From a virus (taxonomy: Duplodnaviria; Heunggongvirae; Uroviricota; Caudoviricetes): DNA of 55,913 nt. The first letter of the stretch is position 1. Each line of letters opens with the position of its first letter. Under the pieces are notes generated by a model. It did no database searches. It was not told the origin of the DNA and saw nothing but the letters and a program-made list of their open reading frames with translations. The position numbers and the translations under genes were made by a program. Positions 11,662 through 50,722 of this stretch are shown here, piece after piece. The stretch lies in the IMG/VR virus record IMGVR_UViG_2778261121_000001, positions 1-55,913 of that record, one strand, 5' to 3'.

Positions 11662-12365
11662 CAGCGCACCTCACCATCTTTATGGCTGGACTTAACTTCC
11701 GCCATTAAATGTCTGACGTAATCGACAAGAGAGCCGCCTGGTGGAATCTGGCATTCCTCGACTAACTGGAAGTAGATATCCGCTGCATTACGTGTATTGC
11801 TACCTGTGCATATTTTTTCTTCACGAAGAGCATTACGTTCGTTGATCAAACGAACGCACTCGCCGTTACGCTGCTCCACAACGGCCTCAAGTTCTGCGAC
11901 GCGTTCACCTGGCGTCTTACCTTCTTTGCGTTGGATGGTAACGACGAAATCGCCAATTGCAGGGACGTTGTAATCCAGCTCAAGGTAGTTTTTGGCACCG
12001 CTGCGGACGAACTCACCCGCGAACATGGTAGCGAACATCGCAGAGGCCACTTCGCCGTTGAAAAGTGACTCCAGATCTAACGGAGTCCCAGCAGCAATAG
12101 CCTCTTTTGCTGTATCCATTGCATCCATGAACCGATCAAACTCACTAGCGCGCTTTTCCAGGTCTTTCCATTGCTCGCTCCAACGTTTGGCAACGAAGTC
12201 TATGAATGTTTTCGCGGATTCATCAAAATTCCCCTCAAACTTAACGATGCCTTTATCAATAATGATCTGGCCTACCGCATCCTCTGCATAACCTTTCAAT
12301 GTAAACTTGAAAGGAAAATCGGAATGGCCTGTGACGTTAAAATGCTCTAACTGGAGGTTGCTCAT
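11661..12365 (-). CDS. hypothetical protein (234 aa)
   Basis: ORF in track; start in the conserved GAAAAACACATG context. Confidence 0.5.
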   Translation of the reverse strand: MSNLQLEHFNVTGHSDFPFKFTLKGYAEDAVGQIIIDKGIVKFEGNFDESAKTFIDFVAKRWSEQWKDLEKRASEFDRFMDAMDTAKEAIAAGTPLDLESLFNGEVASAMFATMFAGEFVRSGAKNYLELDYNVPAIGDFVVTIQRKEGKTPGERVAELEAVVEQRNGECVRLINERNALREEKICTGSNTRNAADIYFQLVEECQIPPGGSLVDYVRHLMAEVKSSHKDGEVR

Positions 12366-12426
12366 GTGTTTTTCTCTTATCGTTTAGTTACTACATTCTT
12401 ACACAAATTAAGTAAGCATTTACCTA

Positions 12427-14112
12427 TCATTTAACGCGTTTGAAAACGTATACGCTGACTGTGATCCCGGTATCTTCAAACTCGTTGGTAAACGACTTCC
12501 CTTTGGCATAAACGTAATTATCCATCGTCATCCAGCTCAGGATTGGCGCAGTGCCCGGCAATACTGCTACAAGACGACCGCCGAGTTTCAGATGCCCCAG
12601 CGCAGCCAGCGTGTGCTCTCTATGACGACCAAGCGAGTACGGCGGGTTCATAACGATTTTGTCGAACTGATAACCTGCGTTGTCCTCAGACCACTTTATG
12701 AAGTCGCAGCAAATCGTGTTCGTATACCCTTTTCCACGCAGGATATCAGCGAAGAGAGGTGCGATTTCTATGCAGGTAACATCTTCCAGATCGGCGTTAA
12801 TATAGGCCAGAAGATCCCCACGTCCGGCTTGAGGCTCCAACAGCTTCTCACCAGGCTTCAATTCAGTGGCTCTTGCAACGTACTCAGCAATCAAGCGTGG
12901 GGTAGGGTAGAACTGGTGTGATTTTGTATCCGGTATTAAACCGGTAGCCACAATCGTATTTAGCGTATGGCCGATGTCATACGGGAACTGCCAGTGCTTT
13001 TTCTCCTGCACGCCGCCAATGAAGCTCAGTGTGCGCTCAAGCTCTTCCACCTGCGACTTCTGGAGAGCTGAATCAGAGAAGTACCATACGCCTTTGTCTT
13101 TGCTCAATCGCCCGTCACGAAGCGCAGTGCGAACCGGCACGGAGATCGTCTTCTGGATTAACCCGAACTGCTTTGGTGCCCGTGTTTTTGGCGCAGTTCG
13201 GCATGGCGCGGGAATTGCAGCAGGCATACTGTAAGCCAGCACCTCATTCAACTTCCAGGCCACGTCAGGATGTATTTCAAAGTGAACGTTGCCGTTCTTG
13301 AACATCTTCACGCGCATCAGATTTCCATCGACGTTCATCCAGTCACCGGTCTGGCAGTCGTTTGCCCGATACGCAGCTGATAGCACCTCAGCAGTGCGGT
13401 TGATGGTAATAAATTCTTTGTGCGCGAAGAAATGAAGCAAGACACGCAGATCGTCGATGTAGTCCTCTTTGCGATAGTTCACGCTAACGCTGTCCCGCCA
13501 GAAATCAGAAATGCAGTCAGCGATTATCAGACGCTCGCTGAAACCGTTTGTCTTATTTGTCTTGTGCGCAGGACTCAGCGCCTTAAACAAGCCATACACG
13601 CGCTCAGAGAGATATTTGTGCCTGTCATTCAGCAAATTAAGCATCGTGGGTATGACCGTTTCTGCTTTGAACTCCGGTACACCAACGAACTCTTTAACCT
13701 TCATCTGGTAGCCGGTTCTGTCAGTTTTGATGACTTCCTGTTTGCCCTCTATAAACTGCTCGCGCCACTCATCTCGACGGGAAGCTGGCATGATCAGCAA
13801 AACGTTAGTCATGTCCGTGACCTTCCTCCAGTACTCGGCCCAAATATTCTGTTTCACCCATTCCAGATCGACTTTATCCAACCAACCTCGATTTAAACGC
13901 GAGCGATCTTCATCTGGTCGATGGTTTAGTCTCAGCAGGCGATTAATCATGTTGTGGCGTTCGTCGCCATAAACGAAGTCGTGAACCTGATACATGAAGG
14001 CGATCTCTTTCTCGCACTCGGCCACAATTTCGTGGATGACGTTCATTTCCTGCCGATAGTCGATAGCAGTGTTTGAGTTGGCATCGTCGATGATGGAAAG
14101 GGCTGTATTCAT
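12427..14112 (-). CDS. DNA amino-methyltransferase (C-terminal NPPY domain) fused to a ~380-aa N-terminal domain of unknown function
   Basis: C-terminal FYPTP, LEPQAGRGDL (motif I) and NPPY (motif IV); N-terminal domain has no recognisable motif. Confidence 0.7.
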   Translation of the reverse strand: MNTALSIIDDANSNTAIDYRQEMNVIHEIVAECEKEIAFMYQVHDFVYGDERHNMINRLLRLNHRPDEDRSRLNRGWLDKVDLEWVKQNIWAEYWRKVTDMTNVLLIMPASRRDEWREQFIEGKQEVIKTDRTGYQMKVKEFVGVPEFKAETVIPTMLNLLNDRHKYLSERVYGLFKALSPAHKTNKTNGFSERLIIADCISDFWRDSVSVNYRKEDYIDDLRVLLHFFAHKEFITINRTAEVLSAAYRANDCQTGDWMNVDGNLMRVKMFKNGNVHFEIHPDVAWKLNEVLAYSMPAAIPAPCRTAPKTRAPKQFGLIQKTISVPVRTALRDGRLSKDKGVWYFSDSALQKSQVEELERTLSFIGGVQEKKHWQFPYDIGHTLNTIVATGLIPDTKSHQFYPTPRLIAEYVARATELKPGEKLLEPQAGRGDLLAYINADLEDVTCIEIAPLFADILRGKGYTNTICCDFIKWSEDNAGYQFDKIVMNPPYSLGRHREHTLAALGHLKLGGRLVAVLPGTAPILSWMTMDNYVYAKGKSFTNEFEDTGITVSVYVFKRVK

Positions 14113-14154
14113 AATTGCACCATTAAGAAGTGATTTGTTTAATGGTGCAATTAT
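14111..14154 (-). promoter_or_regulatory. perfect 16-bp inverted repeat sequestering the methyltransferase start codon
   Basis: ATAATTGCACCATTAA-N12-TTAATGGTGCAATTAT; the ATG at 14110-14112 lies at the base of the stem; no U-tract follows. Confidence 0.5.
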
Positions 14155-14215
14155 TTCAAAAATGAAAAGGTACTAAATAGAAATAAACAGGCAATCCTTC
14201 AAATAAAGGCATTGG

Positions 14216-15168: not shown

Positions 15169-15738
15169 TCAATTAGAGCTTTGAAAGGCTTTGTGTGGTT
15201 GTGTTGCGAGGTTATGTCGATGGCTTAACTCACGCATCATGTCTTCAAGGCGACTCTTTGTGTCGTCGAGTTGGTCGGCCATTGCTCCCAAAAGCTGACG
15301 AACGGCCATCGGATCATCGCTGTTTAGTGATGGCATTTTATAACCCGCCTGAGAAGACATAAGATTGAACGCAGACATCAACATCGTTAGAGAGGATTTA
15401 AGCCCAGCAATTTCACGATCTTTGCTGGCAATAATCGCCTCACTCTTGTTAGTGTCATCAGTTCGTTGAGTCTCGCTCACCATATCCAAAGTCGCCTGCA
15501 ACTTATCAGCGCGCTCTTTTTCAGCAAGATAATGAACACCGAAATGATGTGCTAAAGCTACAACCTGAGTTGGCTCTTCAAAGGTGGACTCAAAATTAAG
15601 TGCTGTAACCACTCTCTCAAATATGGAAACGTCTTCTATTCCTCGAAGAATGGCTAACATTTTGACCAGTTCATTAGCATCCATTTCTTCGAATAAGGCG
15701 TTTTGTTCATCAGCTATCGCTTTGCATTTCTTGCACAT
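15169..15738 (-). CDS. hypothetical protein (189 aa)
   Basis: ORF in conserved start context; 5'-leader motif at 15756-15775. Confidence 0.5.
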   Translation of the reverse strand: MCKKCKAIADEQNALFEEMDANELVKMLAILRGIEDVSIFERVVTALNFESTFEEPTQVVALAHHFGVHYLAEKERADKLQATLDMVSETQRTDDTNKSEAIIASKDREIAGLKSSLTMLMSAFNLMSSQAGYKMPSLNSDDPMAVRQLLGAMADQLDDTKSRLEDMMRELSHRHNLATQPHKAFQSSN

Positions 15739-15877
15739 GTGTTTTTCCTAATGCTTAAACAAGTTGTTTTCTTATTGGCTTTATTGTGATGTGGCATAAA
15801 AGGGGAGCAAGCTAAACGTAAAGGTGCAAACTCTCTATTTCGGTCAACGAAACACAAGGGCCATTTGGCCCTTGTCA

Positions 15878-16036: not shown

Positions 16037-16461
16037 TAGAGATAAGCATCCAGTGACAACTGAAGCGCCTGTGCGATCTTTTTCAGTGCCAGCTCTTCTT
16101 GTTCGCCAATACCGTCTTGGTCGGCAATATCAAGGCACAGACACAGTACATCTACTGCATCATTAGTCCCGGCCACATCAGCCAGCTCACGTAAAGCCTG
16201 GGCATTAGCGCGGCGCGGTGAGGCTTCGTATTGAGCACGGATATTGGCGCTCATTTGGGCAATCTCACCAGCAAACGGAGAAAACGCAGGCAGAGCTGCA
16301 ATTGTTTTCTCAAGAATGGAAATTTCCTTTGCGTCGCATGTGCCATCGGCATAGGAGATCATGTACGCGCCCCACACGGTGGCTTCAACCGCATCTCGGT
16401 TCTCCATTTTTTTGACCTCGATAACAGCTTTACGAGTTTTCTTTTTGAATAAACCTAACAT
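16036..16461 (-). CDS. TerB-like (tellurite-resistance TerB domain) protein
   Basis: 141 aa; resemblance to TerB judged by eye over the helical core and acidic C-terminal region; 5'-leader motif at 16484-16503. Confidence 0.5.
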   Translation of the reverse strand: MLGLFKKKTRKAVIEVKKMENRDAVEATVWGAYMISYADGTCDAKEISILEKTIAALPAFSPFAGEIAQMSANIRAQYEASPRRANAQALRELADVAGTNDAVDVLCLCLDIADQDGIGEQEELALKKIAQALQLSLDAYL

Positions 16462-16554
16462 GTGCTTTCCTTTTGTTATTTGTTAAAACAAGTTGTTTTC
16501 TAGTTACATGAATTGCTTACGAAAAGACGGTCAATGCATATGCACTAACAACCG

Positions 16555-18580: not shown

Positions 18581-18811
18581 TCATTGCGATTGATTATTTT
18601 CTCGACCATGTAGTTGAACATTCAAGGCAAACACCTCGTTGATCAACTCACCTAAAAGCTGTTCAACAAGTTCGCGATGCTCCCCAAGATGCAAGCACTT
18701 AATTGCCCATTCGTACAAGTTGAAAGCCTGCTCGCGATCTTTCATCATTTCACGGGCCTGGGCCAGAAAATCGCTCTCTACGAGCGCAACGACATTAGTC
18801 GGGTATGACAT
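18581..18811 (-). CDS. hypothetical protein (76 aa)
   Basis: ORF; start set at the ATG with AAGGA Shine-Dalgarno. Confidence 0.4.
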   Translation of the reverse strand: MSYPTNVVALVESDFLAQAREMMKDREQAFNLYEWAIKCLHLGEHRELVEQLLGELINEVFALNVQLHGRENNQSQ

Positions 18812-18996
18812 GTTAGTTTCCTTAAAGTGATTCATAAAATCGATTTTAAAGCGTCTGGGAAGGGGTTCTAGTGGATTCTGTAGTGATGTTCAGGTCTGGA
18901 GTCTCTGATACAAAACAGCCTGCTTCCGTATATTAATAATTAATATGTAGTTATTTATATATACAGAAGCAGGCTAATTACAGACGCCAGAACAAA

Positions 18997-25542: not shown

Positions 25543-26685
25543 TTACAGGTCTGCAAACTGGCTTAGAGAAGCCTTATCCACGGTAGAATCGATCTGACCT
25601 ACCAGATATGTGCTTTGCTCTGCCTCTTGTGGTGCAATTTGCAGTGTGTCGGTTAACAACCACTTGTTCATCCAGACCAGCGGATCTGTGGTAACTTCTG
25701 GAAATAAAGCCTTCAGGCCAAGACGATTCATAGCCAGATTGGTGCGGTATTTTACATAGGTCTTCAGAATATCCGCGTTTAAACCAATCATCGAACCGTC
25801 TTTGAAGAGATAGTCTGCCCAGTTCATTTCTTGTTCGGCGACTGATTTCATGGTGTCGTAAATGACGTTTTCTTCATCAGCAGCAATCTCTTTCCACAAT
25901 AAGCCTTCGCGACCGGTACGCATGAAGCGGATCATGCGTTCAGTTCCTTCGCAATGCAGAGCTTCATCACGGGCAATAAAGCGCATAATTTTGGTGTTAC
26001 CCTCAAGCAACTTCCGTTCGCCAAAGGCAAACGTACATGCAAAACTTACATAGAAACGGATCGCCTCAAGCGCATTAATGGACACCAACGTGCGGAAAAG
26101 CTGACGGTGCAAAGGGTATGGCTCCCAGCCATATTCATTTACGTACAGACGTTCAAACTCTTTCTCACCTAACGACTGGCGCTCGCAGGTCATCCCATAA
26201 AGCCTGTCATATTCAGCAGAGATACTGATCGCTCGGTTGATGATTTCTTCATCCGTAACAATACCGTCAAAAACAATACTCGGATCGTCCACCATGCCAC
26301 GAATAATGTGGGTGTAGCTGCGGCTATGGATAGTCTCAGAGAAAGACCATGTTTCAACCCACGTTTCCAGTTCAGGAATAGAGATAAGCGGCAGAAGCGT
26401 TGCATTTGGGCTACGTCCCTGAACTGAATCGAGTAACGTTTGATAACGGAGATTGCTCAGAAAAATGTGACGTTCGTGGTCCCGCAGCTTCGTGTTGAAG
26501 TCGATACGATCACTCGAAATATCAACTTCTTCCGGCCGCCAGAAGAAAGACAATTGACGTTCAATCAACTTTTCAAAATCACGGTATTTTTGCTGATCGT
26601 AACGTGCCACGTTGACAGATTGTCCGAGGAACATAGGCTCTTTGGTTGCATCATTAGCACCCAAACGGAACGTTGAATATGACAT
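25543..26685 (-). CDS. nrdB: ribonucleotide reductase class Ia beta subunit
   Basis: 380 aa; resemblance to NrdB recognised by eye; conserved start context and 5'-leader motif. Confidence 0.85.
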
Positions 26686-26785
26686 GTGTTTTTCCTTTTT
26701 TGATGTGTTTAAACAAGTTGTTATCTTATGTGTTTAAACAAGGCTTACAAATCAAAGATAAGGTGGGGATATACCCCACCATATG

Positions 26786-32678: not shown

Positions 32679-33718
32679 AAAATATCCAATTTGCTCAGAT
32701 CAAATCCGCCGTCAGTATCGTGGACAATCTTGCAATAAGCAGATACCGACTCTCCCAGGCTATCGATTTTGCTGGTTTCAGTTGTGCTGGCTGTCCCTTC
32801 CATCATTGATGACTTACGGATGAAGTTGCACACGACACCTTTTGCACCCATTGTTTTGAGGATGTTCTGGTACTTAATGCCTTCTTCATCGTTCTCAATT
32901 ACGGCGCGGAAACGCACGTAGTTGCCGCGAATTTGGTCATCAGCAACATCATCTTCCAGGTTAATGAATTTAGGCGCACTGGTTTCGTAGTGACTGAAAC
33001 TGCCGTCCGGGTTTACGATCATGTAGCCAGCCAGAGATCCAACATCTCCCCAATTTTGATGAGTCAGTGCACCGACACTGATAACTCCAGGAATGACCTC
33101 TTTGTGGTTGTGGTAATGCCCACTAAGCACGAGACGAAAGCCGATATCCTTTAACTCCTGCGCATCGATACCGACGTCAGGCATTGTTGGAATGGCTTTG
33201 TTAATGGATGTATGGATAACAACGTCATGATTATCACCTTCTACGCTCTTACGTAATGCTTTCAGATCGCTGATAAGCTCCGCATGATTGTTACGCCAGC
33301 TAATCAGGTGGACAGTCACATCACCAATTTTTATTGAGTGTGGGCGATTGCCACATACGATTACCACGCCGATAGAACTCAGCGATGCTGCTGCGTTGGC
33401 GCTATATACTGAATCGTTGGTTTCAAGATCGTGATTACCGGCCAGCATTACTACTGTCAGATCAAGCTCGTTGATAATCCACTTGTACGTTTCAGTTACG
33501 TAATGCAAAACAGAAGGGGACACAGTTCCTCGGACGTGAAATGTATCACCGGCAACCAACATGTACTTACAACCGGCCTTCTTCATGGCGATGGCTGCTT
33601 CTTTCGTTGCTTCCAACTGTATTTCAAGTCTGGAGTTAAGCCCCTCAGCGTTCGTCGTGGAGAACGCATCCCATTTGTGGTAGTGGCAGTCAGAAATGAC
33701 GCCGTATGGCAAAGTCAT
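32633..33718 (-). CDS. SbcD/Mre11-like nuclease (phage gp47-like)
   Basis: Calcineurin-like phosphoesterase motifs (DCHYH, GDTFH, GNHD). Confidence 0.8.
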   Translation of the reverse strand: MTLPYGVISDCHYHKWDAFSTTNAEGLNSRLEIQLEATKEAAIAMKKAGCKYMLVAGDTFHVRGTVSPSVLHYVTETYKWIINELDLTVVMLAGNHDLETNDSVYSANAAASLSSIGVVIVCGNRPHSIKIGDVTVHLISWRNNHAELISDLKALRKSVEGDNHDVVIHTSINKAIPTMPDVGIDAQELKDIGFRLVLSGHYHNHKEVIPGVISVGALTHQNWGDVGSLAGYMIVNPDGSFSHYETSAPKFINLEDDVADDQIRGNYVRFRAVIENDEEGIKYQNILKTMGAKGVVCNFIRKSSMMEGTASTTETSKIDSLGESVSAYCKIVHDTDGGFDLSKLDILCQEILTEAESSEAV

Positions 33719-33972
33719 GTGTTTTTCCTTTGTGGTTATTTTGATACAAATTCTAAGAGCAATGAGGAGGTAAACAACTATGCATAACGGTATGTTAGGA
33801 ATGAAACGAGCGCCTTAATATACAAAATTTATAAGTAAGTATATACCTATTTATCGTGGCGCAACTTTGCTTGTCTGTATGACTAAAAATAAGACTGGAT
33901 CACTGTAGAACGCTATGAGAGCTATTTTGAGGGGGCGTAGATTCTATCTACGCCAATATACGATCTGGAGGG

Positions 33973-34617: not shown

Positions 34618-34718
34618 AATCGTTTTTTCAGTAGTTATTGGCCGATGCTACGATAACTCATTAGGCATACCTTAATCTGCATTTGCCTGTTTTACTTATC
34701 CCAGTTATCCACTGGATA

Positions 34719-34776
34719 GATCCAAATAAGAGATCCCAAGTAAGATCAAATAGAAGATCCAAAGAGATCCCCGATC
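34719..34776. promoter_or_regulatory. cluster of six GATC sites
   Basis: GATC at 34719, 34732, 34744, 34756, 34766 and 34773 within 58 bp. Confidence 0.5.
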
Positions 34777-34817
34777 GCCTCTAGCCGTTGCGGTTACTGG
34801 TCTGAAAGGGTGTTGCC

Positions 34818-34920
34818 ATCCACTATGGAGAGCAAAGAAACCTCTGTAGAGAGCTGAATAACCGCTATGAAGAGTAAAACAACCACTCTGGAGAGCTGTA
34901 TATATCCACTGTAGAGAGTA
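34818..34920. repeat. iteron array A (5 copies, ~21-bp period)
   Basis: Repeats of (A/T)NCCACTRTRGAGAGC at 34818, 34839, 34860, 34881 and 34905. Confidence 0.7.
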
Positions 34921-35077
34921 GAGCACATTGTCTTTTATGGATAACTTAATGACTTAATTCTTCATTAACATACTGATATACATAGATATATTTTAAACTC
35001 TACTCTTAGTCATGATTCTTATGTCCTTAAATATCCACAGAAGAGTAGAGTTACCTGTTCTTGAAATCCTCTGATTT

Positions 35078-35086
35078 TTATCCACA
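35078..35086. promoter_or_regulatory. DnaA box (TTATCCACA) in the AT-rich spacer between iteron arrays
   Basis: Perfect consensus 9-mer with AT-rich DNA and GATC sites on either side. Confidence 0.5.
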
Positions 35087-35198
35087 GGCCCGATCCAGTA
35101 ATTCAGATCACAAAGAGAACCAAAGAGACCCATAAAGACCCAATAAGATCCCCGCCCACCTCAAACCGTTGCGCCATCTGCCTTCAGACATGATCGAT

Positions 35199-36417: not shown

Positions 36418-36900
36418 CCAACCACTGTAGTTAGTAGTAAGGCTCACTATCCACTGTAGTGAGCCTTACTTATATCTGTAATTCGCTATCCACTATAGTG
36501 AGTATCGTTATCTGTTGATAACCACTGTAGGCAGTAGAATGCAAATACTGAATCAAATGTTAGTGATCACTAACACTGATGAAACAAGGGCTGCGAGGTT
36601 AGTGGTCACTGGGTATCTTGGAAAATTTACTGTCTATAGTGGTTGTTGTCGCCCTCATCTTTGAGCGTATCCACTGTGGCGAGTGGATATCCACTGAAAA
36701 CAGCAAAGGCTTACTCACCATAGTGGATACCCGCTGGACATCTCACTCCAATACTCACCATAGTGGTTGTTTGATGCGAATGAAAGGCTGTCTACTCGCT
36801 ACAGTGGTTAGCAGATATGTAGGAAGAGAGGACTGCAGACCACAGTGGATAATGAGCTGATACGAATGCGGTGAGCTGGCTACTCACCGCAGTGGTTGGT
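36418..36900. repeat. downstream iteron array (about 11 copies, both orientations)
   Basis: CCACTGTAG/CCACTATAG cores and their reverse complements between the repA stop and the next gene. Confidence 0.7.
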
Positions 36901-37452: not shown

Positions 37453-37628
37453 GCTGCCACCTCTTTGATTACATCAAATGCTGAATTAAATACGAGCACG
37501 ATAGCCAAAGCGTTTATGACTACGTCGTTCACCGGGGAAAAGACTTTACGAATGACACCAGTGAAAATGCAGTCGATGACAAAAGCTATTGACACGATGA
37601 GCAACAAGTATTCAATAAAAATCTTCAT
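37449..37628 (-). CDS. candidate small membrane protein (59 aa)
   Basis: Hand-translated hydrophobic ORF with ATGA overlap to the downstream gene; no clear Shine-Dalgarno. Confidence 0.3.
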   Translation of the reverse strand: MKIFIEYLLLIVSIAFVIDCIFTGVIRKVFSPVNDVVINALAIVLVFNSAFDVIKEVAA

Positions 37629-37667
37629 GATAGGTAGATACTAACTTATATAAATTTTACTGTAAAC

Positions 37668-37943
37668 TCACTCAAAAGTGCTGATGCTTAGAATACGCTC
37701 AAGATGTGCGGCATCTTCATCACTGATTTGTTGAGTCTCTTCTACATACCAACAGTTGCCGTTATGCCAACAAACACCATCATCATCAACCATCACTGAA
37801 TCAGCGTCATGACCTGTATATTCAACGAGAATACGCTGGATCAGCGCGTCAATTTCTTCGTCGTTAAGGCCATCGGCTTTGACGATAAAAAGCGGAAATG
37901 CGTCATAGACAGTGCTGGTAACGATTCGAACTAAAACTCTCAT
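37668..37943 (-). CDS. hypothetical acidic protein (91 aa)
   Basis: ORF in conserved start context. Confidence 0.45.
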   Translation of the reverse strand: MRVLVRIVTSTVYDAFPLFIVKADGLNDEEIDALIQRILVEYTGHDADSVMVDDDGVCWHNGNCWYVEETQQISDEDAAHLERILSISTFE

Positions 37944-37998
37944 GTGTTTTTCCTTTTGTGGTTAGTGTTTACTTATTTTGTTAGTTATGAATAGGCGA

Positions 37999-39350: not shown

Positions 39351-39551
39351 TTATTTCCCCTTTGCTTTGATTAATGAGTTAATAAACTTACGACCAGCAA
39401 TAAGACCGATTACAGGAGCACCAAAACCAACGATAACTCCAAACATGACTGCTAAATCACTCTTGGTAGAAATCAGCGACGGAACCAGTAAACCGTAGAT
39501 GAGAGCCACTGAAAGGCCTGTGGTTACTGCCAATAGATAGATTTTGATCAT
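39351..39551 (-). CDS. small two-helix membrane protein (66 aa), partner of the SPFH protein
   Basis: ORF in conserved start context, 3 nt upstream of the SPFH gene. Confidence 0.5.
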   Translation of the reverse strand: MIKIYLLAVTTGLSVALIYGLLVPSLISTKSDLAVMFGVIVGFGAPVIGLIAGRKFINSLIKAKGK

Positions 39552-39581
39552 GTGTTTTCCTATGTGGTTGTTATGTGAAAA

Positions 39582-43256: not shown

Positions 43257-44285
43257 TTACAGAGAGTCCAGTTCTCTCAGCAGGTCATCAATACCTTCAT
43301 CTTCCGTCGCAGATGCGGTTGCTACAGATGTCGCTGCGACTGCTTCAGACTCTTTGACTGATACGGTAACGGCAGCGGAACTTGCCTCTGGTTTAAATTC
43401 AGTTTCAACGGCACGGAGGATTTCTTCATCAACCAGACTGGTTGGTTCAGAAGCCGGTGTGTGTGCGGTTGCTACAGCCGTCGCTCCTTCTGTATGACCA
43501 GTGACAGAGCCAAATCCAGGCAGTGCCGCGGCCGATGTTTTCGCGGTAGAGGAAATTGCTGGTGCCGATGCAGAGGCAGTTGGTGCTGCGATGCCAATCA
43601 GACGACCCATAGTGCGAACTGTCGAGAGAAGACGAGTTTCATCAGCCTGATTTGCGTATGCGATCAGATCATGCTGGGTATTCCAGAATTTATCTTCGAT
43701 ATCGCCTTTGTAGACTTTACGCTTAGGCGAGACGTCATATTTGGTATCGCGACCAGAGCCAGTACGTTTAATCAGGAAAGCGTAGCCTTCCTCTTTGCTC
43801 AGTGGATTACCGATATCATCAGCGATGTCTTCGGTGATTGCTTTGCAGATATCATCGAATACAGTGGAAGGCAGTTCGATTAACTGGCATTTCTCTGCAT
43901 CGGCGAAATCCTCACGAGCTGAAAGAATGCCGTTGACCAGGTAGCGAGGAGTGGCACGCATTTGACCGATGCGTTCTTCCATTGCTTTGTTACCCTTGTG
44001 ACGAGCGCGACCTTCCATCACCATTTCGCATAGCTGACAAGCGCGACCGTGAGTATGTTGCTCACAAATATAAGCGTTGGTTGCTTCTTTACCTTCCTCG
44101 TTCTGATACTTAACGTAGTGCATACCGAAAGTCTGGAAGAACTTACCGTTTGGGTCGTCTTTATTCGGGAAGATGCGGATATAGTTGACGCCGTCTTTTA
44201 AGCGAGTCAGATCAACGTTGTTACCACGTTTGGCAGCAATGTCTTCACGAGTTTTGTTAAGCAAATCAAGTAATGTCTTAGACAT
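43257..44285 (-). CDS. single-stranded DNA-binding protein (T4 gp32-like, putative)
   Basis: Cys/His cluster CEQHTHGRACQLC and acidic C-terminal tail ending DDLLRELDSL. Confidence 0.5.
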   Translation of the reverse strand: MSKTLLDLLNKTREDIAAKRGNNVDLTRLKDGVNYIRIFPNKDDPNGKFFQTFGMHYVKYQNEEGKEATNAYICEQHTHGRACQLCEMVMEGRARHKGNKAMEERIGQMRATPRYLVNGILSAREDFADAEKCQLIELPSTVFDDICKAITEDIADDIGNPLSKEEGYAFLIKRTGSGRDTKYDVSPKRKVYKGDIEDKFWNTQHDLIAYANQADETRLLSTVRTMGRLIGIAAPTASASAPAISSTAKTSAAALPGFGSVTGHTEGATAVATAHTPASEPTSLVDEEILRAVETEFKPEASSAAVTVSVKESEAVAATSVATASATEDEGIDDLLRELDSL

Positions 44286-44402
44286 GTGTTTCTCCTTGTT
44301 GTGATTTGGCCGATGGCGCTATGCGCGTTGGGCTTTCGTTCATTCGTGGCTCTTTCGAACTGTTAAATAATAGATCAGTACTTACTTATTATCTATCAAA
44401 AA

Positions 44403-44834
44403 TCAACGGGGAGTAATAAAGCGTTCAGAGCCTAATCGCTCTAATTCAACGATGGCCATCTTTGACGCCTGAACGATCATGTCTCGGCGATGCGAAAAGG
44501 CGGCGACAGCATGTTTGTATATGTCTGCGATGTGCCGTGCTTCATCCAACTTCTGCCGTTTAGACAGATACTGTGGGTTTGTTTTAACCTTAGCGTCCAG
44601 TACAGACTCGTTGAACTTAATGCCGTTCATACTCAAGTTCTTACGCTCTGTGTCGTATAGCTTTGCTTCAACAGCTTCAAGGTTAAGTTTTGCCTCTGCG
44701 ACACTTCTTTCTGCATGAGCGAGTTTTGAGCCATACTCCATTAAAAGGCGGGGTTGTCTACGCCAGACTTCCTCCAGATTGTCTCGGTCAAACTCGAGAT
44801 CAGACATTATTTTCTCGTAAATATCGGTGATCAT
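44403..44834 (-). CDS. hypothetical protein (143 aa)
   Basis: ORF in track. Confidence 0.45.
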   Translation of the reverse strand: MITDIYEKIMSDLEFDRDNLEEVWRRQPRLLMEYGSKLAHAERSVAEAKLNLEAVEAKLYDTERKNLSMNGIKFNESVLDAKVKTNPQYLSKRQKLDEARHIADIYKHAVAAFSHRRDMIVQASKMAIVELERLGSERFITPR

Positions 44835-44959
44835 GTGCTTTCCCTTTTACTTATCATTTTATATTGATTATATCATTGTGATGATAAGGCAAGGAGTTCG
44901 AGGATAGGGGATATGAGGGGATAAGGGAAAACATGGCCATAGAGGCCATGTTTATTGGA

Positions 44960-46129
44960 TCACGTCTTAATAGTTTCTGCTACGTCGGCTAATATAGCTT
45001 CTAGTCGTTCTCCCTCTTCAGGTCTGAAGTAAAGAATGTTGGGGTTAAACCCGTAAAAGACAGTAACGTCAAGGTCTGGAAGATACTCCTTCCTGCCGAC
45101 CAAATCGGATGGCTTGTTTTTGTTGTTAAACAATGAAGTTGCCCGGCTGCCACACGTCAGCACATAGGTCGGACGCACCAGATTGATCTCTTCACGCATA
45201 AAGTCGGTGAACTGGCCGATCTCGTCTTTGGTGTAGTCTTTTTCTTTGTCTTTAACCTTCTTGCAAACGCCTGTGACATAGAGATCGCCCATGCGTAAAT
45301 CTCCAGCCGTCAATAGCTTGGCCTTAAAATCGTCGTATCCGTTCTCCATAAAGTAACCGGTTCGAGCATCATTGCCGTTCGCATTGTCCAGAATGATCAT
45401 GATTTTCGGCTTAATACCAATGCTGGGGCGGATTAGTTCATCACCTAAGCCCATTTCAGCCGCCATCCGTGTCATGAGCACGTTAATCTCAGCCGAACGT
45501 TTGGGGTTCATCTCAAACGGACGTGAGGCTTTAACTGCGTCTATGACAAGATTTCCCATCAATTCAGCCTGGTCGCGTAGGCGCTCTGGATCAGTTGCTG
45601 GCAGACTACCTGGCTCGATGGATGCAAACGCCCCTACTTTTTGCAGCGATTCGCGCACTCGACTATTACAGGCACGTTTCTCGACAGCTTCTTCGAATTG
45701 CGCAAGTGACTCGAATTTGCCACCAACCTTTTCTCGCGCTCTCATGATGGCCTGGCAGCCATTCTCAGAACACCCCTTCACAGCAGAGAAGGGCGCATAC
45801 AGCACCTGGCTGCCATCTTCAAGCGTGCGGATCTCGATTCGGTTAGATGACACGTTAACGTCTGGTGGCAATACGCGAATACCATAGGTCAGCGCATCTT
45901 TAACCAGCCCCTGGTGTTTATCTTCGCCAAGAATAGTGAGAGCAGCAGCGAAAAACTCTGCGGGATAATGAGTTTTCAACCACATAGATTGATAACTGAT
46001 CAAGGAGTAAGCAACAGAGTGTGATTTGTTAAAGGCGTATCCACCGAACTTTTCAAAGGCGTCCCATATTTCCTGGGCTTTCTCAGGGCTAAGACCTTCC
46101 TGCTCGGAAATAACTTTTGCAATTTTCAT
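44960..46129 (-). CDS. DNA polymerase III alpha (DnaE) C-terminal fragment
   Basis: Begins MKIAKVI...FEKFGGYAFNKSHS, aligning with the DnaE fingers region; own ATG in the conserved GGGAAAACACATG context. Confidence 0.75.
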   Translation of the reverse strand: MKIAKVISEQEGLSPEKAQEIWDAFEKFGGYAFNKSHSVAYSLISYQSMWLKTHYPAEFFAAALTILGEDKHQGLVKDALTYGIRVLPPDVNVSSNRIEIRTLEDGSQVLYAPFSAVKGCSENGCQAIMRAREKVGGKFESLAQFEEAVEKRACNSRVRESLQKVGAFASIEPGSLPATDPERLRDQAELMGNLVIDAVKASRPFEMNPKRSAEINVLMTRMAAEMGLGDELIRPSIGIKPKIMIILDNANGNDARTGYFMENGYDDFKAKLLTAGDLRMGDLYVTGVCKKVKDKEKDYTKDEIGQFTDFMREEINLVRPTYVLTCGSRATSLFNNKNKPSDLVGRKEYLPDLDVTVFYGFNPNILYFRPEEGERLEAILADVAETIKT

Positions 46130-46149
46130 GTGTTTTCCCGTTGCTAGCT

Positions 46150-46851
46150 TCAAATGCTTGCTTTTTTTAAGATATTTGCGATTTGAGTGTTAGATATGCC
46201 GAATTTTTCTCGCAACTTTTCGTAGGTTGCGCCAGCTTTGCGCAAGGCGACCACTTCAGCTCTTGCTTCGTCATCCAGCTTTTTGGATGCCCTTGAGGCA
46301 ACGATCGGCCCACCAATACGTGCCCATTTCTTCCCGGTGACGATATGGTGAATATAAAGCTCAGTTAAACCATATTCGGCCGCGAGGTCTTTGTTCAGAG
46401 CACCCTCTGACTTTTTAATGCGAATAGCAATGACGACTTCGTTGGTTAGCTTGGCGTTGTAGCGCCTCTCACCAAACTCAACGGTATCGTGTGCAATGGC
46501 GTCAGCCATGTTGTCGACTTGAGTGCCATACGCGAGATTGAAGGGCGCATTGTTTGATGGTTTACCGTCAAGATGACGAATAAGTAAGCCTTCTGGTCGT
46601 TCTCCGTGGAATGCAGTTGCTACCAGATAATGAACTGTGCGGTCGTATTTGACGCCGTTGACGCTTAGTTTCACGCCAAGATGTCCAAAATCATTGATTA
46701 CGCGAGGTTTTAGGATTTGCCCCTTCTTCACCCATTCGCCCCCTTTGGGGGCTGTTTGTATAACATCTAATGAGCGAATGCGTCCTAAACTGGATGCTTC
46801 GTAATAACCTTCAAATTCAGGAATAGATTTCCAAACTTCTTCCACCGTCAA
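46150..46851 (-). CDS. HNH homing endonuclease inserted within dnaE
   Basis: 233-aa ORF in a different frame from both dnaE halves, overlapping the upstream stop and ending 18 nt before the downstream ATG; family assigned from the split-gene context, no HNH or NUMOD motif checked. Confidence 0.6.
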   Translation of the reverse strand: MTVEEVWKSIPEFEGYYEASSLGRIRSLDVIQTAPKGGEWVKKGQILKPRVINDFGHLGVKLSVNGVKYDRTVHYLVATAFHGERPEGLLIRHLDGKPSNNAPFNLAYGTQVDNMADAIAHDTVEFGERRYNAKLTNEVVIAIRIKKSEGALNKDLAAEYGLTELYIHHIVTGKKWARIGGPIVASRASKKLDDEARAEVVALRKAGATYEKLREKFGISNTQIANILKKASI

Positions 46852-49211
46852 ACTCCAAAATCAACAATATCAGCGTTGTCACTCATCGCTTCGTCATAGG
46901 TCCTGCGTTTGCCGTCAGAGCACAGCAGCATGGCCTTTTTGTGGACTTCTACTGTGCTTCCGTCTTCAAGTGACAGTGTCACCCAGCCTGCTTGTGCTCG
47001 TTCTACAAAATCGCTGCCGATCGCTTTCATCTTTTCCATGTTCTTCTTACCGATGGCGGAACGCAGAGCATCAGCCTCCGCCATAGAGAATCCAGCGAGC
47101 ACACGAGAGCTTTTCATAATTTGCTCTTGATAGAGCAAAACGCCGTTAGTTTCTTTGGTTGTTTCCTCAAGACGAGGATGAATTGAATGTGGAGCCATAA
47201 AACCTTTGGCGACAGAAACATAGTCATCCAACATGCCTGACTGAATTGGCCCCGGCCGGAAGAGCGCAGTTGTAGCAACAACCGTTTTAAAGCTCATTGG
47301 CTCAATTCCACCACCTAAATCTTTAAGCAGCTTGCGCATTGGGCCTGATTCAAGCTGGAAAACACCTTGAGTGTACCCAGCAGCAAAACCATCCAGCACC
47401 TTGCGATCCTCAAGAGAAATGGCATCAAGATTGATATCTTCACCTGTGTTCTCTTTTATGTAGCGTTTTGCACTATCGAGCAAATCGAGAGTTGCCAGGC
47501 CAAGCACGTCTAGCTTAATTAGGCCCATAGCCTCGCAGTAACGCTTGTCAAATGCGATACAACGCGCGTCACCACGGCGTTCAACCGGTGTACGTTCTGT
47601 CAGAGGAACACCTGCTACGATCATCCCTGCCGCATGTCTACCAAAGCCACGCATAAGGCTTTGTAACTTGCAGGCTGCATTGAATGCATCAGGATATTTT
47701 GTTGCGTATTTGTCGAGACTTGCCAGTTGTTCGCGCAGCTCTTCCAATGGAAGGCTATCATCCTCGACGTTCTTCAGTTCTTTTGATACCGCCATATCTG
47801 CGGACTCCACACCATAAATACGAGCGGTGTCACGTAGTGCAGAGGCTGCGCCCAGGTAGGTGAAGTTCGGAATGCCTGCAACGTAATCTTCGCCGTAGCG
47901 TTCATTCAGATACTCGATCACCTCATGGCGACGTGCCTGGCTGAAGTCCAAGTCCGCATCTGGCAAGTCGAGACGCTCAGGGTTGATGAAACGCTCAAAC
48001 AGAAGACCGTGACGGATTGGGTCGACGTTGGTTATGCCTATGCACCACGCCACCAGAGAACCGGCAGAGGAACCACGACCAGGCCCGACAGGAATGCCAG
48101 TTTCACGGCTGTGATTCATCAGATCGCGTACCATCAGGAAGTAACCACAAAATCCCAGGCGAGTCAGCGTGTCCATTTCGTACTTAAGCCGTTCAACATA
48201 AATCCTGTTCTCAGAAGCCGGTGGTGTGTAGCCAAACTCTTTTGTGGTAAGACGTTTACGCAGCCCAGCAACGGCCAGTTTCATCAGCGTTGCAGGCTCG
48301 TCGTCTGCCATCTTTGGCAGTGCTGGTGGCAATTCATGCCAGCGCCATGTGCAGGCATCGATAATGGTATCCTGCGTTGTTGAGGCCATTGCAGCTGTTA
48401 CCGGCACATCCATGCGAACGGAGAAGGCTTTAAGAGCCTCAAGGAGATGGCGGCGACCATTGACGGCGTTATCTCGCTGGTGGGGGATACGCAGACGATG
48501 CGGCTGGTCGATTTTGATGTTGTTCGTAACCATGTGCGCAATGTCTTTAATGTCTGCATCGTCGATCGATTCGTAATAAGCGGGATAGAACGCTACTGGC
48601 TCTATTTTCAGTGCTCTGGCGACTTTCATCGCCCGGACGTTAATCTGGTCGTAGAATGGTGTAGGGTGCGGATAAACCACACTATAGAAGTTGTCTTTTC
48701 CACCTGCTGTAATCAGTGAGCTTATGATTTTTGCAAAATCGTTGCGTTGGAACACGCTACCGATGTCGGAAGTGAGCAGGATGATGTTGCCTTTGGCATA
48801 TGTAGAAACCAACTGTTCGAGCGAGAGACGCGGTACAAAGTAGAACTGTTCTCGTGTGTTGGCCACCGTCATTAGTTCGCAGATGTCGCGATATCCTTGC
48901 TCATTTTTAATTAGAGCGGTAAACGAGTAGTTACGTCCTCGCTCTAATGATTCCATACATCCCTTAGACTCTTTAGCAAGTTTAGCCCGGTACTCGTATG
49001 TGGGATCATCAACGATATTTAGTTTCACACCACAAATAACCGCCATGTCGTCACCAGCGGCACGTTGTAGTGGAATAACACTCGCAATATTCATGCTATC
49101 TGCTGAAATTACAGCGGTGTAGCCAGCTTCTCTGGCAATCTTCACCGCGTTTTCCGCTTTTAAAGCCGACTCCCCAAGTGAGAAGTCAGTTCGAACCATC
49201 AGTGCCTTCAT
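46848..49211 (-). CDS. DNA polymerase III alpha (DnaE) N-terminal fragment (PHP and polymerase core)
   Basis: 787 aa aligning with the DnaE N-terminal two thirds; conserved start context. Confidence 0.85.
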   Translation of the reverse strand: MKALMVRTDFSLGESALKAENAVKIAREAGYTAVISADSMNIASVIPLQRAAGDDMAVICGVKLNIVDDPTYEYRAKLAKESKGCMESLERGRNYSFTALIKNEQGYRDICELMTVANTREQFYFVPRLSLEQLVSTYAKGNIILLTSDIGSVFQRNDFAKIISSLITAGGKDNFYSVVYPHPTPFYDQINVRAMKVARALKIEPVAFYPAYYESIDDADIKDIAHMVTNNIKIDQPHRLRIPHQRDNAVNGRRHLLEALKAFSVRMDVPVTAAMASTTQDTIIDACTWRWHELPPALPKMADDEPATLMKLAVAGLRKRLTTKEFGYTPPASENRIYVERLKYEMDTLTRLGFCGYFLMVRDLMNHSRETGIPVGPGRGSSAGSLVAWCIGITNVDPIRHGLLFERFINPERLDLPDADLDFSQARRHEVIEYLNERYGEDYVAGIPNFTYLGAASALRDTARIYGVESADMAVSKELKNVEDDSLPLEELREQLASLDKYATKYPDAFNAACKLQSLMRGFGRHAAGMIVAGVPLTERTPVERRGDARCIAFDKRYCEAMGLIKLDVLGLATLDLLDSAKRYIKENTGEDINLDAISLEDRKVLDGFAAGYTQGVFQLESGPMRKLLKDLGGGIEPMSFKTVVATTALFRPGPIQSGMLDDYVSVAKGFMAPHSIHPRLEETTKETNGVLLYQEQIMKSSRVLAGFSMAEADALRSAIGKKNMEKMKAIGSDFVERAQAGWVTLSLEDGSTVEVHKKAMLLCSDGKRRTYDEAMSDNADIVDFGV

Positions 49212-49389
49212 GTGTTTTTACCTTTCTGGTTTTTTTGATTTTGTCATTGGGGAAGCCTACGAACTTCCCATGCATCGAAATCGCAACTTCTTTTGCTGAT
49301 TGGTGACAATCGGGCTTGTCTGGACACACCAGACAAGCCTTACCAGTTTCAGAAGCAGCGATAAGAGAGCCGAAACATCCTTTACGCAC
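49186..49389 (-). CDS. possible small Cys-rich protein (67 aa)
   Basis: ORF in track overlapping the dnaE start by 26 nt; contains C-x-x-C-x5-C-H. Confidence 0.25.
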   Translation of the reverse strand: MRKGCFGSLIAASETGKACLVCPDKPDCHQSAKEVAISMHGKFVGFPNDKIKKTRKVKTHEGTDGSN

Positions 49390-49391
49390 GA

Positions 49392-50627
49392 TTAACCAAA
49401 TATTTTTTGAACAACTTCACGAGCTGCTTGTGCAGAAGCTGAAGGGAGTTTGTTAATGAAAGAACGCTCAATACCTGTCACAAAGTCGCCTCTCATCATT
49501 CCAATCTTGGCCGACAACAAAAGCTCACGAGGCCCAATCGGTTGGCTGATGTTGTGTTCTTCGTATCCATCGCGAACGATACCGGCAAACTTAACCATCT
49601 TTTCAGCGTATTCATCCACGATGCCAGCATTTATCAACATGTTGATCTCTGCCTCTTTGCTCATGTATTTCACATTCGAAACGATGCCAAAACGCGAAAA
49701 GTTCGCGGCGTTCTGGATGTTTGTACCCTGGTACAAGCCGGTTTCATCACCAGATCCGTTCGTGTTGCCAGTGCCAATGAAAGCAAACCGTTCATGCGGA
49801 GTAATGCGACGCCATTCTGGAGTCGCCTCTTTGATGACCAACGCTTCACCTTCCAGCACTGGCTGATACACGCCAAGAATTTGTGGAAACGCAAAGTCGT
49901 ATTCATCCGCGAGGTAAACCCAGCCATGCTTCATTGCGAGCGCAAGCAAGCCAGGTTCGAAATACGTAGAGCCATCACGCGCCAGAATTTGCCCCGTAAC
50001 ATGTGCCTCTTCCATTGATGCTGTATGTTGGGCACGGATCAACGGACGATTGAGCAAAGCACATAGCTGTGTAGGCAATGACGATTTGCCTGTTCCTGCA
50101 TGACCCCACAAATAGCCAGGTATGCCAAGTTCAAGCATCATGAAAATATCTTTGATCAGTTCGAAGTTGCCATATACGTAGCCTTTCTTCACTTCGGGAA
50201 CGAACTCTGGATACGGCGTATTGACGTTGACGCTAACCATGAGCGGCGTCCCACGTTTTGTTCCGAGTTCTTCCACCGTTACGTTTAGCAGTTCGTGAGC
50301 TGCGACCAGATCTGTCTTGTACTCAACTGTGCCTGTGTAGCCAGGGCTACTGGTCAAGCCAGAAGATTTGGCCATTTCGCTTTTTTGCTCGGCACGTTTA
50401 GCTTGAATTGCATCAAGTGCCTTTTTCGATAGCGTTGGCTCATCTGGAAACTGCGTTGTGTACATTTTCAGTACGGTGTCAGGATCGGCATCTTTTACTG
50501 ACTCAGGAATGCCCTCGCAATTACCATTGGCTACATGGGACTTAAAATAGTGAAATGATTTGCCGCACCACTTGCAAACAAGGTAATCAGAATGATTTTT
50601 TTCATTTTGCAGTGCAGTAGTCGTCAT
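49392..50627 (-). CDS. AAA+ ATPase (MoxR/CobS-like) with N-terminal zinc ribbon
   Basis: Walker A GHAGTGKS, Walker B YLADEYD, N-terminal CKWCGK...C. Confidence 0.7.
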   Translation of the reverse strand: MTTTALQNEKNHSDYLVCKWCGKSFHYFKSHVANGNCEGIPESVKDADPDTVLKMYTTQFPDEPTLSKKALDAIQAKRAEQKSEMAKSSGLTSSPGYTGTVEYKTDLVAAHELLNVTVEELGTKRGTPLMVSVNVNTPYPEFVPEVKKGYVYGNFELIKDIFMMLELGIPGYLWGHAGTGKSSLPTQLCALLNRPLIRAQHTASMEEAHVTGQILARDGSTYFEPGLLALAMKHGWVYLADEYDFAFPQILGVYQPVLEGEALVIKEATPEWRRITPHERFAFIGTGNTNGSGDETGLYQGTNIQNAANFSRFGIVSNVKYMSKEAEINMLINAGIVDEYAEKMVKFAGIVRDGYEEHNISQPIGPRELLLSAKIGMMRGDFVTGIERSFINKLPSASAQAAREVVQKIFG

Positions 50628-50722
50628 GCGTTTTTCCTTTGTTCTCTAATGAGCGTTCAACTTCTTATATAAATATACCATTAACTATCGTAAGTGGTTA
50701 CTTATCATTAAGGCTGTTTTAT

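Follow-up and report, generated by a model that had tools for sequence, protein, structure and literature searches.

The window analysed here is the whole stretch of 55,913 nucleotides (nt) given by IMG/VR virus record IMGVR_UViG_2778261121_000001, and the subject of this text is a short, nearly invariant start signal that precedes many of its genes. Over 99% of a 20-kb probe taken from the window, the identity to Escherichia phage Cyrano (OV696614.1, phage-plasmid pLF82) is about 98%; Salmonella phage SSU5 matches the window at about 79%, and Klebsiella phage-plasmids are more distant. Judged by this similarity, the window is an SSU5-like phage-plasmid, of which it represents the early and replication part. 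It is inverted with respect to Cyrano, almost every gene being on the minus strand, and encodes CobT/CobS-like proteins, DnaE, UvsY, a gp32-like single-stranded DNA-binding protein (SSB), an exonuclease, a UvsX/RecA-like recombinase, RepA with iterons, SbcCD-like nucleases, RuvC, NrdAB, MazG, ThyX, Pnk, DHFR, DnaQ, Dam, RNase H and MetRS, next to a number of small genes.

The start signal and its distribution

About a dozen early DNA-metabolism genes of the window share the consensus start signal AAGGA-AAA-CAC-ATG. The 15-mer AAGGAAAAACACATG, with at most three mismatches, is found 13 times in the window, always on the minus strand, where 2.8 matches are expected and none of 100 shuffled sequences reaches 13. 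The exact heptamer ACACATG occurs ten times on the minus strand, and nine of these occurrences open reading frames (ORFs) of 66-787 amino acids (aa). After alignment of the 62 minus-strand starts, CAC is observed at positions -3 to -1 in 12 of them (0.56 expected, binomial P = 4e-13), the next commonest triplet being present only three times, and AAACAC at -6 to -1 in nine (0.03 expected). In an unbiased search for repeats, the direct-repeat families that ranked highest in the window (D1, D2, D12) were formed by this same motif. Identity around the motif fades within about 20 nt, which indicates a short motif and led to the rejection of a long repeated cassette; a subset of three genes (hyp59, sbcD and memb56 in the list below) has about 22 nt, AACCACAaAGGAAAAACACATG, in common. 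AAGGA, GGAG or GGGA is located at -12 to -7 in 13 of 13 sites, with 6-8 nt between GGA and the start codon, and all 13 open ORFs of 66-787 aa with annotated homologues in Cyrano or SSU5. By their complementarity to 16S rRNA and their spacing to a real gene, the motif sites are initiation regions of the Shine-Dalgarno (SD) type.

A first-pass annotation had listed eleven starts (12365, 15738, 16461, 26685, 33718, 37943, 39551, 44285, 46129, 49211 and 50627) as sharing almost the same 12-15 nt upstream of the ATG. All eleven are real motif-bearing starts on the minus strand; ten coincide with starts of coding sequences in Cyrano, and the eleventh, 46129, is the start of a C-terminal fragment of dnaE. 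The sharing was correctly seen and is even more pronounced than described there, but its strictest part is the AAACAC spacer and not AAGGA. Two instances can be added, 44834 (uvsY) and a weak variant at 18811 that ends in AAC. As deviations from the consensus, 50627 has CGC in place of CAC, and both 16461 and 44834 have GCAC. The sites are given below, with the state of the CAC in orthologous haplotypes from the relatives described in the next section.

12363..12377 (ATG 12365-12363), minus strand: start of the Ead/Ea22-like gene, AGAGAAAAACAC+ATG; CAC in 14 of 15 distinct orthologous haplotypes
15736..15750, minus strand: start of a 189-aa hypothetical gene (CYRAN_87 homologue), TAGGAAAAACAC+ATG; CAC in 15 of 19 haplotypes; palindrome AAACAAcTTGTTT 19 nt upstream
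16459..16473, minus strand: start of the P1 TciA-like gene, AAAGGAAAGCAC+ATG; CAC in 14 of 14 haplotypes
18809..18823, minus strand: start of a 76-aa hypothetical gene (CYRAN_80 homologue), weak variant AAGGAAACTAAC+ATG; AAC, ATC or CAC in orthologues; a borderline member
26683..26697, minus strand: start of nrdB, exact AAGGAAAAACAC+ATG; CAC in 16 of 17 haplotypes
33716..33730, minus strand: start of the sbcD-like (gp47-like) nuclease gene, exact motif; CAC in 19 of 25 haplotypes, the others TAC, CAT or TAT
37941..37955, minus strand: start of a 91-aa hypothetical gene (hyp59; CYRAN_59 homologue, phrog_2209), exact motif; CAC in 24 of 27 haplotypes
39549..39563, minus strand: start of a 66-aa membrane protein gene (memb56; CYRAN_56 homologue), ATAGGAAAACAC+ATG; CAC in 24 of 24 haplotypes
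44283..44297, minus strand: start of the T4 gp32-like SSB gene (Pfam gp32, E = 1.7e-66), AAGGAGAAACAC+ATG; CAC or TAC in orthologues
44832..44846, minus strand: upstream, orthologue-supported start of the uvsY-like gene, AAGGGAAAGCAC+ATG; motif only in the E. coli-type lineage, other contexts elsewhere
46127..46141, minus strand: restart of the dnaE C-terminal fragment, ACGGGAAAACAC+ATG
49209..49223, minus strand: start of dnaE (N fragment), AGGTAAAAACAC+ATG; CAC in 14 of 14 haplotypes
50625..50639, minus strand: start of the cobS-like gene, variant AAGGAAAAACGC+ATG, with AAGGAAAAACAC in most other lineages; CAC in 12 and CGC in 6 of 20 haplotypes

In the SSU5-like family, start codons can be located reliably by the motif, which corrects the start of uvsY and places the restart within a split dnaE. 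For uvsY, the start annotated in Cyrano (equivalent to 44807) sits 27 nt downstream of 44834, and orthologues from other lineages align from the upstream ATG or GTG; to judge from these sequences the Cyrano annotation is probably too short by nine codons. The second case concerns the gene for Pol III alpha, which is intact in Cyrano (1168 aa) and also in SSU5. In the window dnaE occupies 44960-49211 on the minus strand, where one ORF covers residues 1-785 and another residues 784-1166, as follows.

49211-46848, minus strand: dnaE N fragment, 787 aa, ending in ...DFGV and the stop codon
46150..46851, minus strand: HNH/NUMOD4 homing-endonuclease gene within dnaE, 233 aa (Pfam HNH_3 3.9e-10, NUMOD4 4.8e-10; phrog_59 1.7e-42), with a helix-turn-helix domain too
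46129-44960, minus strand: dnaE C fragment, 389 aa, beginning MKIAKV... from ACGGGAAAACAC-ATG

The ORF that splits dnaE is, by its domain matches, a free-standing homing endonuclease. The C fragment restarts 20 nt past the endonuclease stop codon, and the same endonuclease insertion is present in 15 other SSU5-like loci, which have retained GACGGGAAAA(A)CACATG. It was sound to locate starts by the motif, including the separate start of the C fragment, which is real and was created by the insertion of the HNH gene. Moreover, the presence of the motif at a newly created, uncoupled start is independent evidence for its role as a start signal in the SSU5-like family.

Eleven of the 12 genes with CAC are preceded by non-coding gaps of at least 50 nt (55-254 nt), against 25 of the 49 other genes (Fisher P = 0.019), and the sole CAC gene without a preceding gap is the dnaE restart; operon-internal genes have ordinary GGAG-type sites and no CAC. 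The 20-30 nt before the motif are rich in A and C and poor in G and U (CACAACA before gp32, for instance), and the predicted probability of being unpaired at -15 to +3 is 0.69 for the motif genes, compared to 0.49 for other first cistrons (P = 1.6e-4) and 0.44 for internal genes, so that an unusual lack of structure is predicted for the motif leaders. Of the motif genes, CYRAN_59 and CYRAN_70 were examined in an LF82 lysogen; their transcription is near the level of adjacent silent genes, which places them in the lytic programme.

In order to compare the window with other DNA, I counted AAACACATG with a nearby SD and opening an ORF of at least 60 aa, per 100 kb.

Window: 16.1 per 100 kb
Whole Cyrano: 8.3 per 100 kb; SSU5: 8.0 per 100 kb
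Cyrano structural and lysis region (29 kb): 0
T4 early region (50 kb): 0
105 Enterobacterales chromosomal loci (818 kb): 0.37 per 100 kb

The chromosomal figure, about 40-fold below that of the window, represents three matches, apparently in one orthologous gene. Among 84 T4 early genes no hexamer at -6 to -1 recurs more than three times. In Cyrano beyond the window, the motif is present at the start of the helicase gene and at a possible upstream start of the primase gene, both in the replication module. Hence the motif marks a single phage family and a single module of genes, and does not represent an optimum shared by enterobacteria at large. In the searchable literature I found no account of this motif in SSU5-like elements.

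Conservation beyond the Shine-Dalgarno pairing

A scan of viral contigs with the 14-mer AGGAAAAACACATG gave, among the matches listed, mostly single chance matches in unrelated contigs, and loci anchored by proteins were used instead. With SbcD, CobS and hyp87 as protein anchors, 214 loci of SSU5-like elements were retrieved, with 60-100% identity to the window proteins, and the orthologous start contexts of 51 genes were compared, giving 176 distinct haplotypes of motif genes.

In ordinary genes (uvsX, mazG, ASCH, thyX, dam, RNase H, dnaQ, ruvC and sbcC), the entropy at -3 to -1 is 0.86-1.34 bits, above that of their own SD positions. The motif genes have values of 0.00 (dnaE, memb56 and tciA), 0.12 (Ead), 0.22 (nrdB), 0.23 (hyp59), 0.39 (sbcD), 0.40 (hyp87) and 0.48 bits (cobS and gp32), which for most of them is at or below their own SD positions and far under the upstream and wobble positions (about 0.5-1.2). 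Orthologous sites keep the motif while wobble positions and flanks are near saturation. A gene-weighted logo holds 1.5-1.76 bits per position at -6 to -1 (A A A C A C), compared to 0.7-1.06 at the SD positions, and the spacer of 21 control genes of the same genomes holds at most 0.2 bits. Exactly AAACAC is found in 119 of the 176 haplotypes; 42 are one base off, mostly by transitions, and only two carry alternative hexamers composed of A and C. This argues for selection on the order of the bases, and not merely on an unstructured A/C composition.

The type of SD shifts between lineages (GGAAAA, GGAGAA, GAGGG, GGGTA, AAGAAAAAAAA), as does the whole upstream region, but CAC always abuts the ATG, and insertions and deletions at motif sites are restricted to the A-run. 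In nrdB orthologues, both the SD (AGGAAAA, AGGGAAA, GAGGAAAA) and the entire upstream region vary by lineage and CAC stays; in hyp59 orthologues the SD varies likewise (GGAAAA, GGAGAA, GGAGGAG, GGGTATAA) under a constant CAC. Independent gains of the motif are seen in uvsX (AAGGATAAAACACATG) and sbcC of a distant clade and at the dnaE restart. By the comparison of these sequences, the AAACAC spacer is under stronger purifying selection than the SD itself. Conservation no greater than SD pairing demands had been named in the first-pass annotation as the outcome that would speak against a special context; with all starts aligned and the orthologues of the 214 loci compared, the conservation of the context goes far beyond what an SD requirement explains.

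Possible functions of the start signal

The element very probably acts at the level of translation and is under selection as such. The best overall explanation, to which I assign a probability of about 0.5, would be a lineage-specific module for translation initiation. On the mRNA, this module would consist of a G/U-poor, A/C-rich leader, AAGGA or another purine-rich SD, three to five A residues, CAC and the AUG, and it would head about 12 of the 62 minus-strand genes, nearly all of them first cistrons after an intergenic gap (dnaE, the gp32-like SSB gene, uvsY, sbcD, nrdB, cobS and small genes). In the well-supported part of this explanation, AAGGA would pair with UCCUU at the 3' end of 16S rRNA (CACCTCCTTA in E. 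coli) at near-optimal aligned spacing, as about 5 nt would be left before the AUG when the virtual GG of GGAGG is counted; some 5 nt is reportedly close to the optimum. Pairing and a structure-free leader together would allow efficient initiation without translational coupling, which fits both the first cistrons and the restart inside the split dnaE. An ordinary SD site has the same complementarity to the 16S rRNA, the same position 5-9 nt from the AUG and real genes behind it, but it lacks the additional fixed 6-nt spacer, stricter than the SD, and the restriction to one module and one phage family.

A second, sequence-specific reader could recognise AAACAC-AUG and co-regulate the set of genes post-transcriptionally, as in the T4 RegA regulon. 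Such a reader would be the most likely addition to the ribosome, because ribosome binding is not known to require a fixed AAACAC; I put a trans-acting reader at slightly less than an even chance. The T4 RegA regulon (about 30 early and middle mRNAs) is the closest functional analogue. There also a short, unstructured element is located at the start of many early DNA-metabolism genes, and the gene set of the window is largely T4-like (gp32, uvsX, uvsY, gp46/47-like, nrdAB). In T4, the unstructured operators of RegA contain the AUG together with a poly(A) tract on the 5' side (PMC3014915), and the phage element resembles them in abutting the AUG with such a tract before it. However, the T4 sites are degenerate sequences rich in A+U that lack a clear in vivo consensus, the SELEX consensus being AAAAUUGUUAUGUAA, whereas the core in the phage-plasmid is a sharp AAACAC and U is nearly absent at -12 to -1. 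A tblastn search with T4 RegA against Cyrano and the window gave a best E of 1.5, and no Pfam Translat_reg domain was found among the 58 hypothetical proteins of both. The motif genes are therefore no members of the RegA regulon, with respect to both the protein and the operator sequence.

The leading candidate for a reader would be a FljA-family protein with a predicted tandem Hfq/Sm fold, CYRAN_114 in Cyrano, although I consider this identification unlikely to be the right one. CYRAN_114 (173 aa; Cyrano 100780-101301, locus L004:780-1301, minus strand, about 6.4 kb past the left end of the window) was the one relevant match from a scan of the same 58 hypothetical proteins, and matches Pfam Flag1_repress (FljA family, PF03614) with E = 1e-80 over 170 of 170 profile positions. 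Its AlphaFold model (pLDDT 84.5) has two tandem domains of a helix and five strands, and no helix-turn-helix. The top 50 fold matches of this model in the PDB are all Hfq, with target-normalised TM-scores (TMt) of 0.66-0.85, about half of them at an rmsd of 1.1-1.3 A over some 57 residues. In 50,697 phage records, full-length homologues of CYRAN_114 are restricted to 12 SSU5-like records, which are all such records, and six of these are Klebsiella phages; Klebsiella hosts are not known to have flagella. In a large protein collection, FljA-like homologues are found on contigs of about 100-115 kb from Escherichia, Salmonella, Klebsiella, Enterobacter, Citrobacter and Cronobacter. From this model, the FljA family is predicted to consist of two tandem Hfq/Sm-like domains, and SSU5-like phage-plasmids, those of Klebsiella among them, have it as a core gene; no description of an Hfq/Sm-like fold for FljA was found in the searchable literature. 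From its relatives, the source genome of the window may be expected to carry the gene as well.

As two articles report with reference to Bonifield & Hughes 2003 and Yamamoto & Kutsukake 2006 (PMC4122451, PMC2652032), FljA binds an operator in the fliC mRNA, blocks its translation and promotes its decay. The likeness of this repression in Salmonella flagellar phase variation to the present case consists of the FljA-family protein in every SSU5-like phage record and of the start region of fliC in Salmonella and Citrobacter, AAGGAAAAGATC-ATG, which is identical to the motif at -12 to -5 (AAGGAAAA) and at -1 (C). The differences are that fliC has GAUC where the motif has ACAC, that fliC of E. coli differs more, and that the identity between the phage proteins and chromosomal FljA is only about 40%; the phage mRNAs are candidate targets only.

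Several points weigh against the module with a reader as described. The binding of any factor to the motif is putative, and a strong, unstructured ribosome-binding site (RBS) would by itself cover most features, the fixed order of bases excepted. Among the first cistrons of this module, about one in two is without the motif. The 176 haplotypes are related by descent, so that counts among them overstate their independence, and the motif genes were picked for carrying the motif in the window, which inflates the part of the logo that compares genes, though not the part that compares orthologues. With respect to the candidate, the start region of fliC in E. coli, AGGATAACGAATC-ATG, is unlike the motif; the FljA-like gene lies outside the window and is itself without the motif; and its product may be that of a lysogenic-conversion gene that silences host flagellin.

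The foremost alternative is a purely cis-acting optimal RBS without any trans-acting reader, the fixed AAACAC being either a narrow optimum of E. coli-type 30S subunits or copied between genes. This may be so, but I do not regard it as probable. The motif at first cistrons and at the dnaE restart, the highest predicted accessibility, the SD complementary to the 16S 3' end and the ordinary GGAG sites of coupled internal cistrons would all follow from it, and flagellin, a very abundant protein, has a similar start region in many Enterobacterales (AAGGAAAAGATC-ATG or CAGGAAAcgAAATC-ATG). However, a spacer of fixed sequence is not a known need of ribosome binding, equivalent spacers of A and C only are almost never seen (2 of 176), and the spacer is more conserved than the SD. 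A universal optimum should also be common in host genes and other coliphages, yet the motif is rare in enterobacterial chromosomes, as counted above, and is seen neither in the T4 early region nor at the phage's own structural genes, which are expected to be highly expressed. The first-pass annotation had offered strong uniform expression or a shared translational operator. This interpretation is supported in part: both readings are compatible with the data, although uniform expression is conjectural. Optimal spacing and structure-free leaders point toward strong expression, whereas sequence-specific conservation, the confinement to a single gene module in a single phage family and the conserved homologue of an RNA-binding repressor point toward an operator.

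Alternatively, AAACACA(UG) could be the seed target of a base-pairing small RNA (sRNA), either host GcvB or a phage sRNA, which would tie early translation to host physiology. With 7-9 nt, the conserved core is as long as a seed match, the leaders upstream are C/A-rich, and UGUGUUU in R1 of E. coli GcvB is the exact 7-nt complement of AAACACA (-6 to +1). The R1 region of GcvB is said to target C/A-rich elements in enterobacterial ribosome-binding sites; the A/C-rich, G/U-poor leaders resemble such targets and C/A-rich enhancers, but those vary in sequence and position and here a fixed hexamer abuts the AUG. Besides, a complement of just 7 nt is little for a G/U-rich RNA that pairs with many C/A-rich sequences by chance, and the predicted GcvB duplexes are mostly long and loose pairings whose energies fail to tell motif genes and controls apart. 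No anti-motif of at least 8 nt was found elsewhere in the window or Cyrano beyond cis-antisense positions, and Rfam and tRNA scans of the window gave no matches. I consider a seed target very unlikely. A G/U-rich stretch at 1486 was rejected as an antisense RNA, as it lies between two operator palindromes of a promoter. In rRNA, no complement to the motif of at least 7 nt was found in 16S, and one 7-mer in 23S was treated as chance.

Even less probable is a site for an endoribonuclease, in which ACACAUG would be cut at its two overlapping ACA triplets by a MazF-type ACA interferase, or near the SD by a T4 RegB-like nuclease, with the mRNAs being inactivated or made near-leaderless. It would account for the invariant A-C-A-C-A, and several toxin-antitoxin modules are present in the element family. 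T4 RegB recognises an SD with an A-rich extension, GGAGRAYARAA (the RegB/S1 motif, GG*AGRAYARAA), on early mRNAs (PMC3014915), which resembles the long SD with an A-rich, pyrimidine-containing spacer seen here. However, RegB needs GGAG, which is present only at the gp32 site (GGAGAAACAC), most sites having GGAA, and RAYARAA fits none of the sites, that of gp32 included. No RegB or MazF homologue was found among the 58 hypothetical proteins, the A-run at -5/-6 is equally conserved and not needed for ACA recognition, and the phage would not benefit from early mRNAs that a host toxin attacks with particular ease. The 'stress ribosome' model for leaderless mRNAs is contested. Two further candidates were rejected: the motif as -10 element of a leaderless promoter, since the T required for it is missing and the sites have an SD, and an upstream ORF ending in ATGA, since roughly one site in three has T at +4.

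That the motif has no function of its own and reflects recombination at module boundaries, a duplicated promoter-leader cassette or a DNA-level protein site beside the starts is hardly credible, since, in spite of mosaic upstream regions with breakpoints near the motif (at nrdB, for example) and the stretch of about 22 nt shared by hyp59, sbcD and memb56, identity decays in about 20 nt, orthologous sites persist despite saturated flanks, the motif always abuts the ATG with indels in the A-run only, all copies are on the coding strand, and it occurs behind at least two promoter/operator types.

Returning to the initiation module with a reader, its most specific form would be a post-transcriptional regulon of SSU5-like elements, in which an FljA-type protein with two Sm domains recognises single-stranded AAACAC-AUG on a dozen early mRNAs for replication, recombination and nucleotide synthesis and switches their translation off or on. 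This is a speculation with a rather small chance of being correct. If true, it would add a further layer to the control of lysogeny and lytic growth that does not depend on the two operator-controlled promoter classes described below, and, outside the T4 RegA family, a temperate phage would for the first time be credited with a multi-gene translational repressor system; the 'flagellin repressor' family would be reassigned as a general translational regulator with Sm fold, and the phage FljA-like protein would be given a testable function. Any trans-acting factor would mean a new layer of control in clinically widespread phage-plasmids (the SSU5, pHCM2 and pLF82 group), some of which carry resistance genes. 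Sharp start-site motifs common to many genes are rare in bacteria and phages, the textbook T4 RegA regulon itself having a fuzzy consensus, and a 6-nt spacer stricter than the SD across Escherichia, Salmonella, Klebsiella and related hosts is a clear sign of either an unrecognised reader or an unrecognised constraint on initiation. The compact, structure-free design of the RBS may also serve in constructs.

Promoters, operators and other features of the window

Two families of palindromes are found upstream of the genes, at least some copies of which overlap or flank sigma-70-like promoters. The first, the 18-bp TARGTAAnnnnTTACYTA, has 11 intergenic copies, compared to 0.9 in shuffled sequences, and several adjoin -10-like hexamers. 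In front of memb56, a sigma-70-like promoter (TTGAAA-17-TATCAT, 39609-39581) with an operator palindrome is located about 30 nt upstream of the motif. This first family is probably the operator of a lysogeny repressor that acts over many early promoters, comparable to the dispersed C1 operators in P1. The second family, AAACAAnTTGTTT / (ATAAG)AAAACAAnTTGTTTAA, has eight copies (0.17 in shuffles), 15-35 nt upstream of start codons. A TGnGATAAT -10 element near 1470 has one copy on either side. The family probably represents either the operator of another DNA-binding regulator or a promoter element specific to the phage. Since both families are located upstream of motif genes and non-motif genes, the start motif is independent of promoter class.

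TARGTAAnnnnTTACYTA: 55399-55382, 44388-44371, 39602-39585, 37648-37631, 33849-33832, 29165-29148, 24459-24438, 19620-19603, 17404-17387, 12426-12409
Second palindrome family: 52863-52851, 38453-38441, 26723-26711, 16498-16486, 15769-15757, 11229-11217, 1501-1489, 1450-1438

One operator palindrome of the window overlaps the promoter TTTACA-17-TAGTAT of a 59-aa gene (37628-37670, minus strand), whose start at 37628 is 9 nt past the promoter and has no SD. This arrangement is kept in 26 haplotypes and looks like that of a leaderless mRNA.

The hicAB toxin-antitoxin pair that Cyrano has between dnaE and uvsY is missing from the window (44835-44959), and so is CYRAN_43 (54879-55094), the locus of which is transcribed at 723-fold over background in LF82 lysogens. 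The UvsX/RecA-like recombinase (39644-41983, minus strand) has 779 aa in the window and in Cyrano compared to 358 aa in SSU5, its RecA fold being interrupted by a Pfam intein splicing domain (about aa 73-486) and a LAGLIDADG endonuclease domain. A full-length methionyl-tRNA synthetase, odd cargo for a temperate phage, is encoded at 1586-3619 (minus strand) and is 99.9% identical to CYRAN_100 with 677 of 677 residues aligned.

Arrays of iterons at 34618-35160 and 36420-36704, with repeats of about 20 nt such as ATCCACTATAGAGAG and a DnaA-box-like TGTGGATAA, are located on both sides of repA (35361-36416, plus strand), and this region is the plasmid replication origin. Finally, the leader of nrdA (29102-29174, minus strand) contains, between the promoter/operator and the SD of nrdA, a hairpin followed by a U-tract (GGGCCACTATATTTAGTGGCCC TCTTTATTT), which shows compensatory changes in orthologues (GGGCC/GGCCC, AGGCC/GGCCT, AAGCC/GGCTT) and may be a transcription attenuator.

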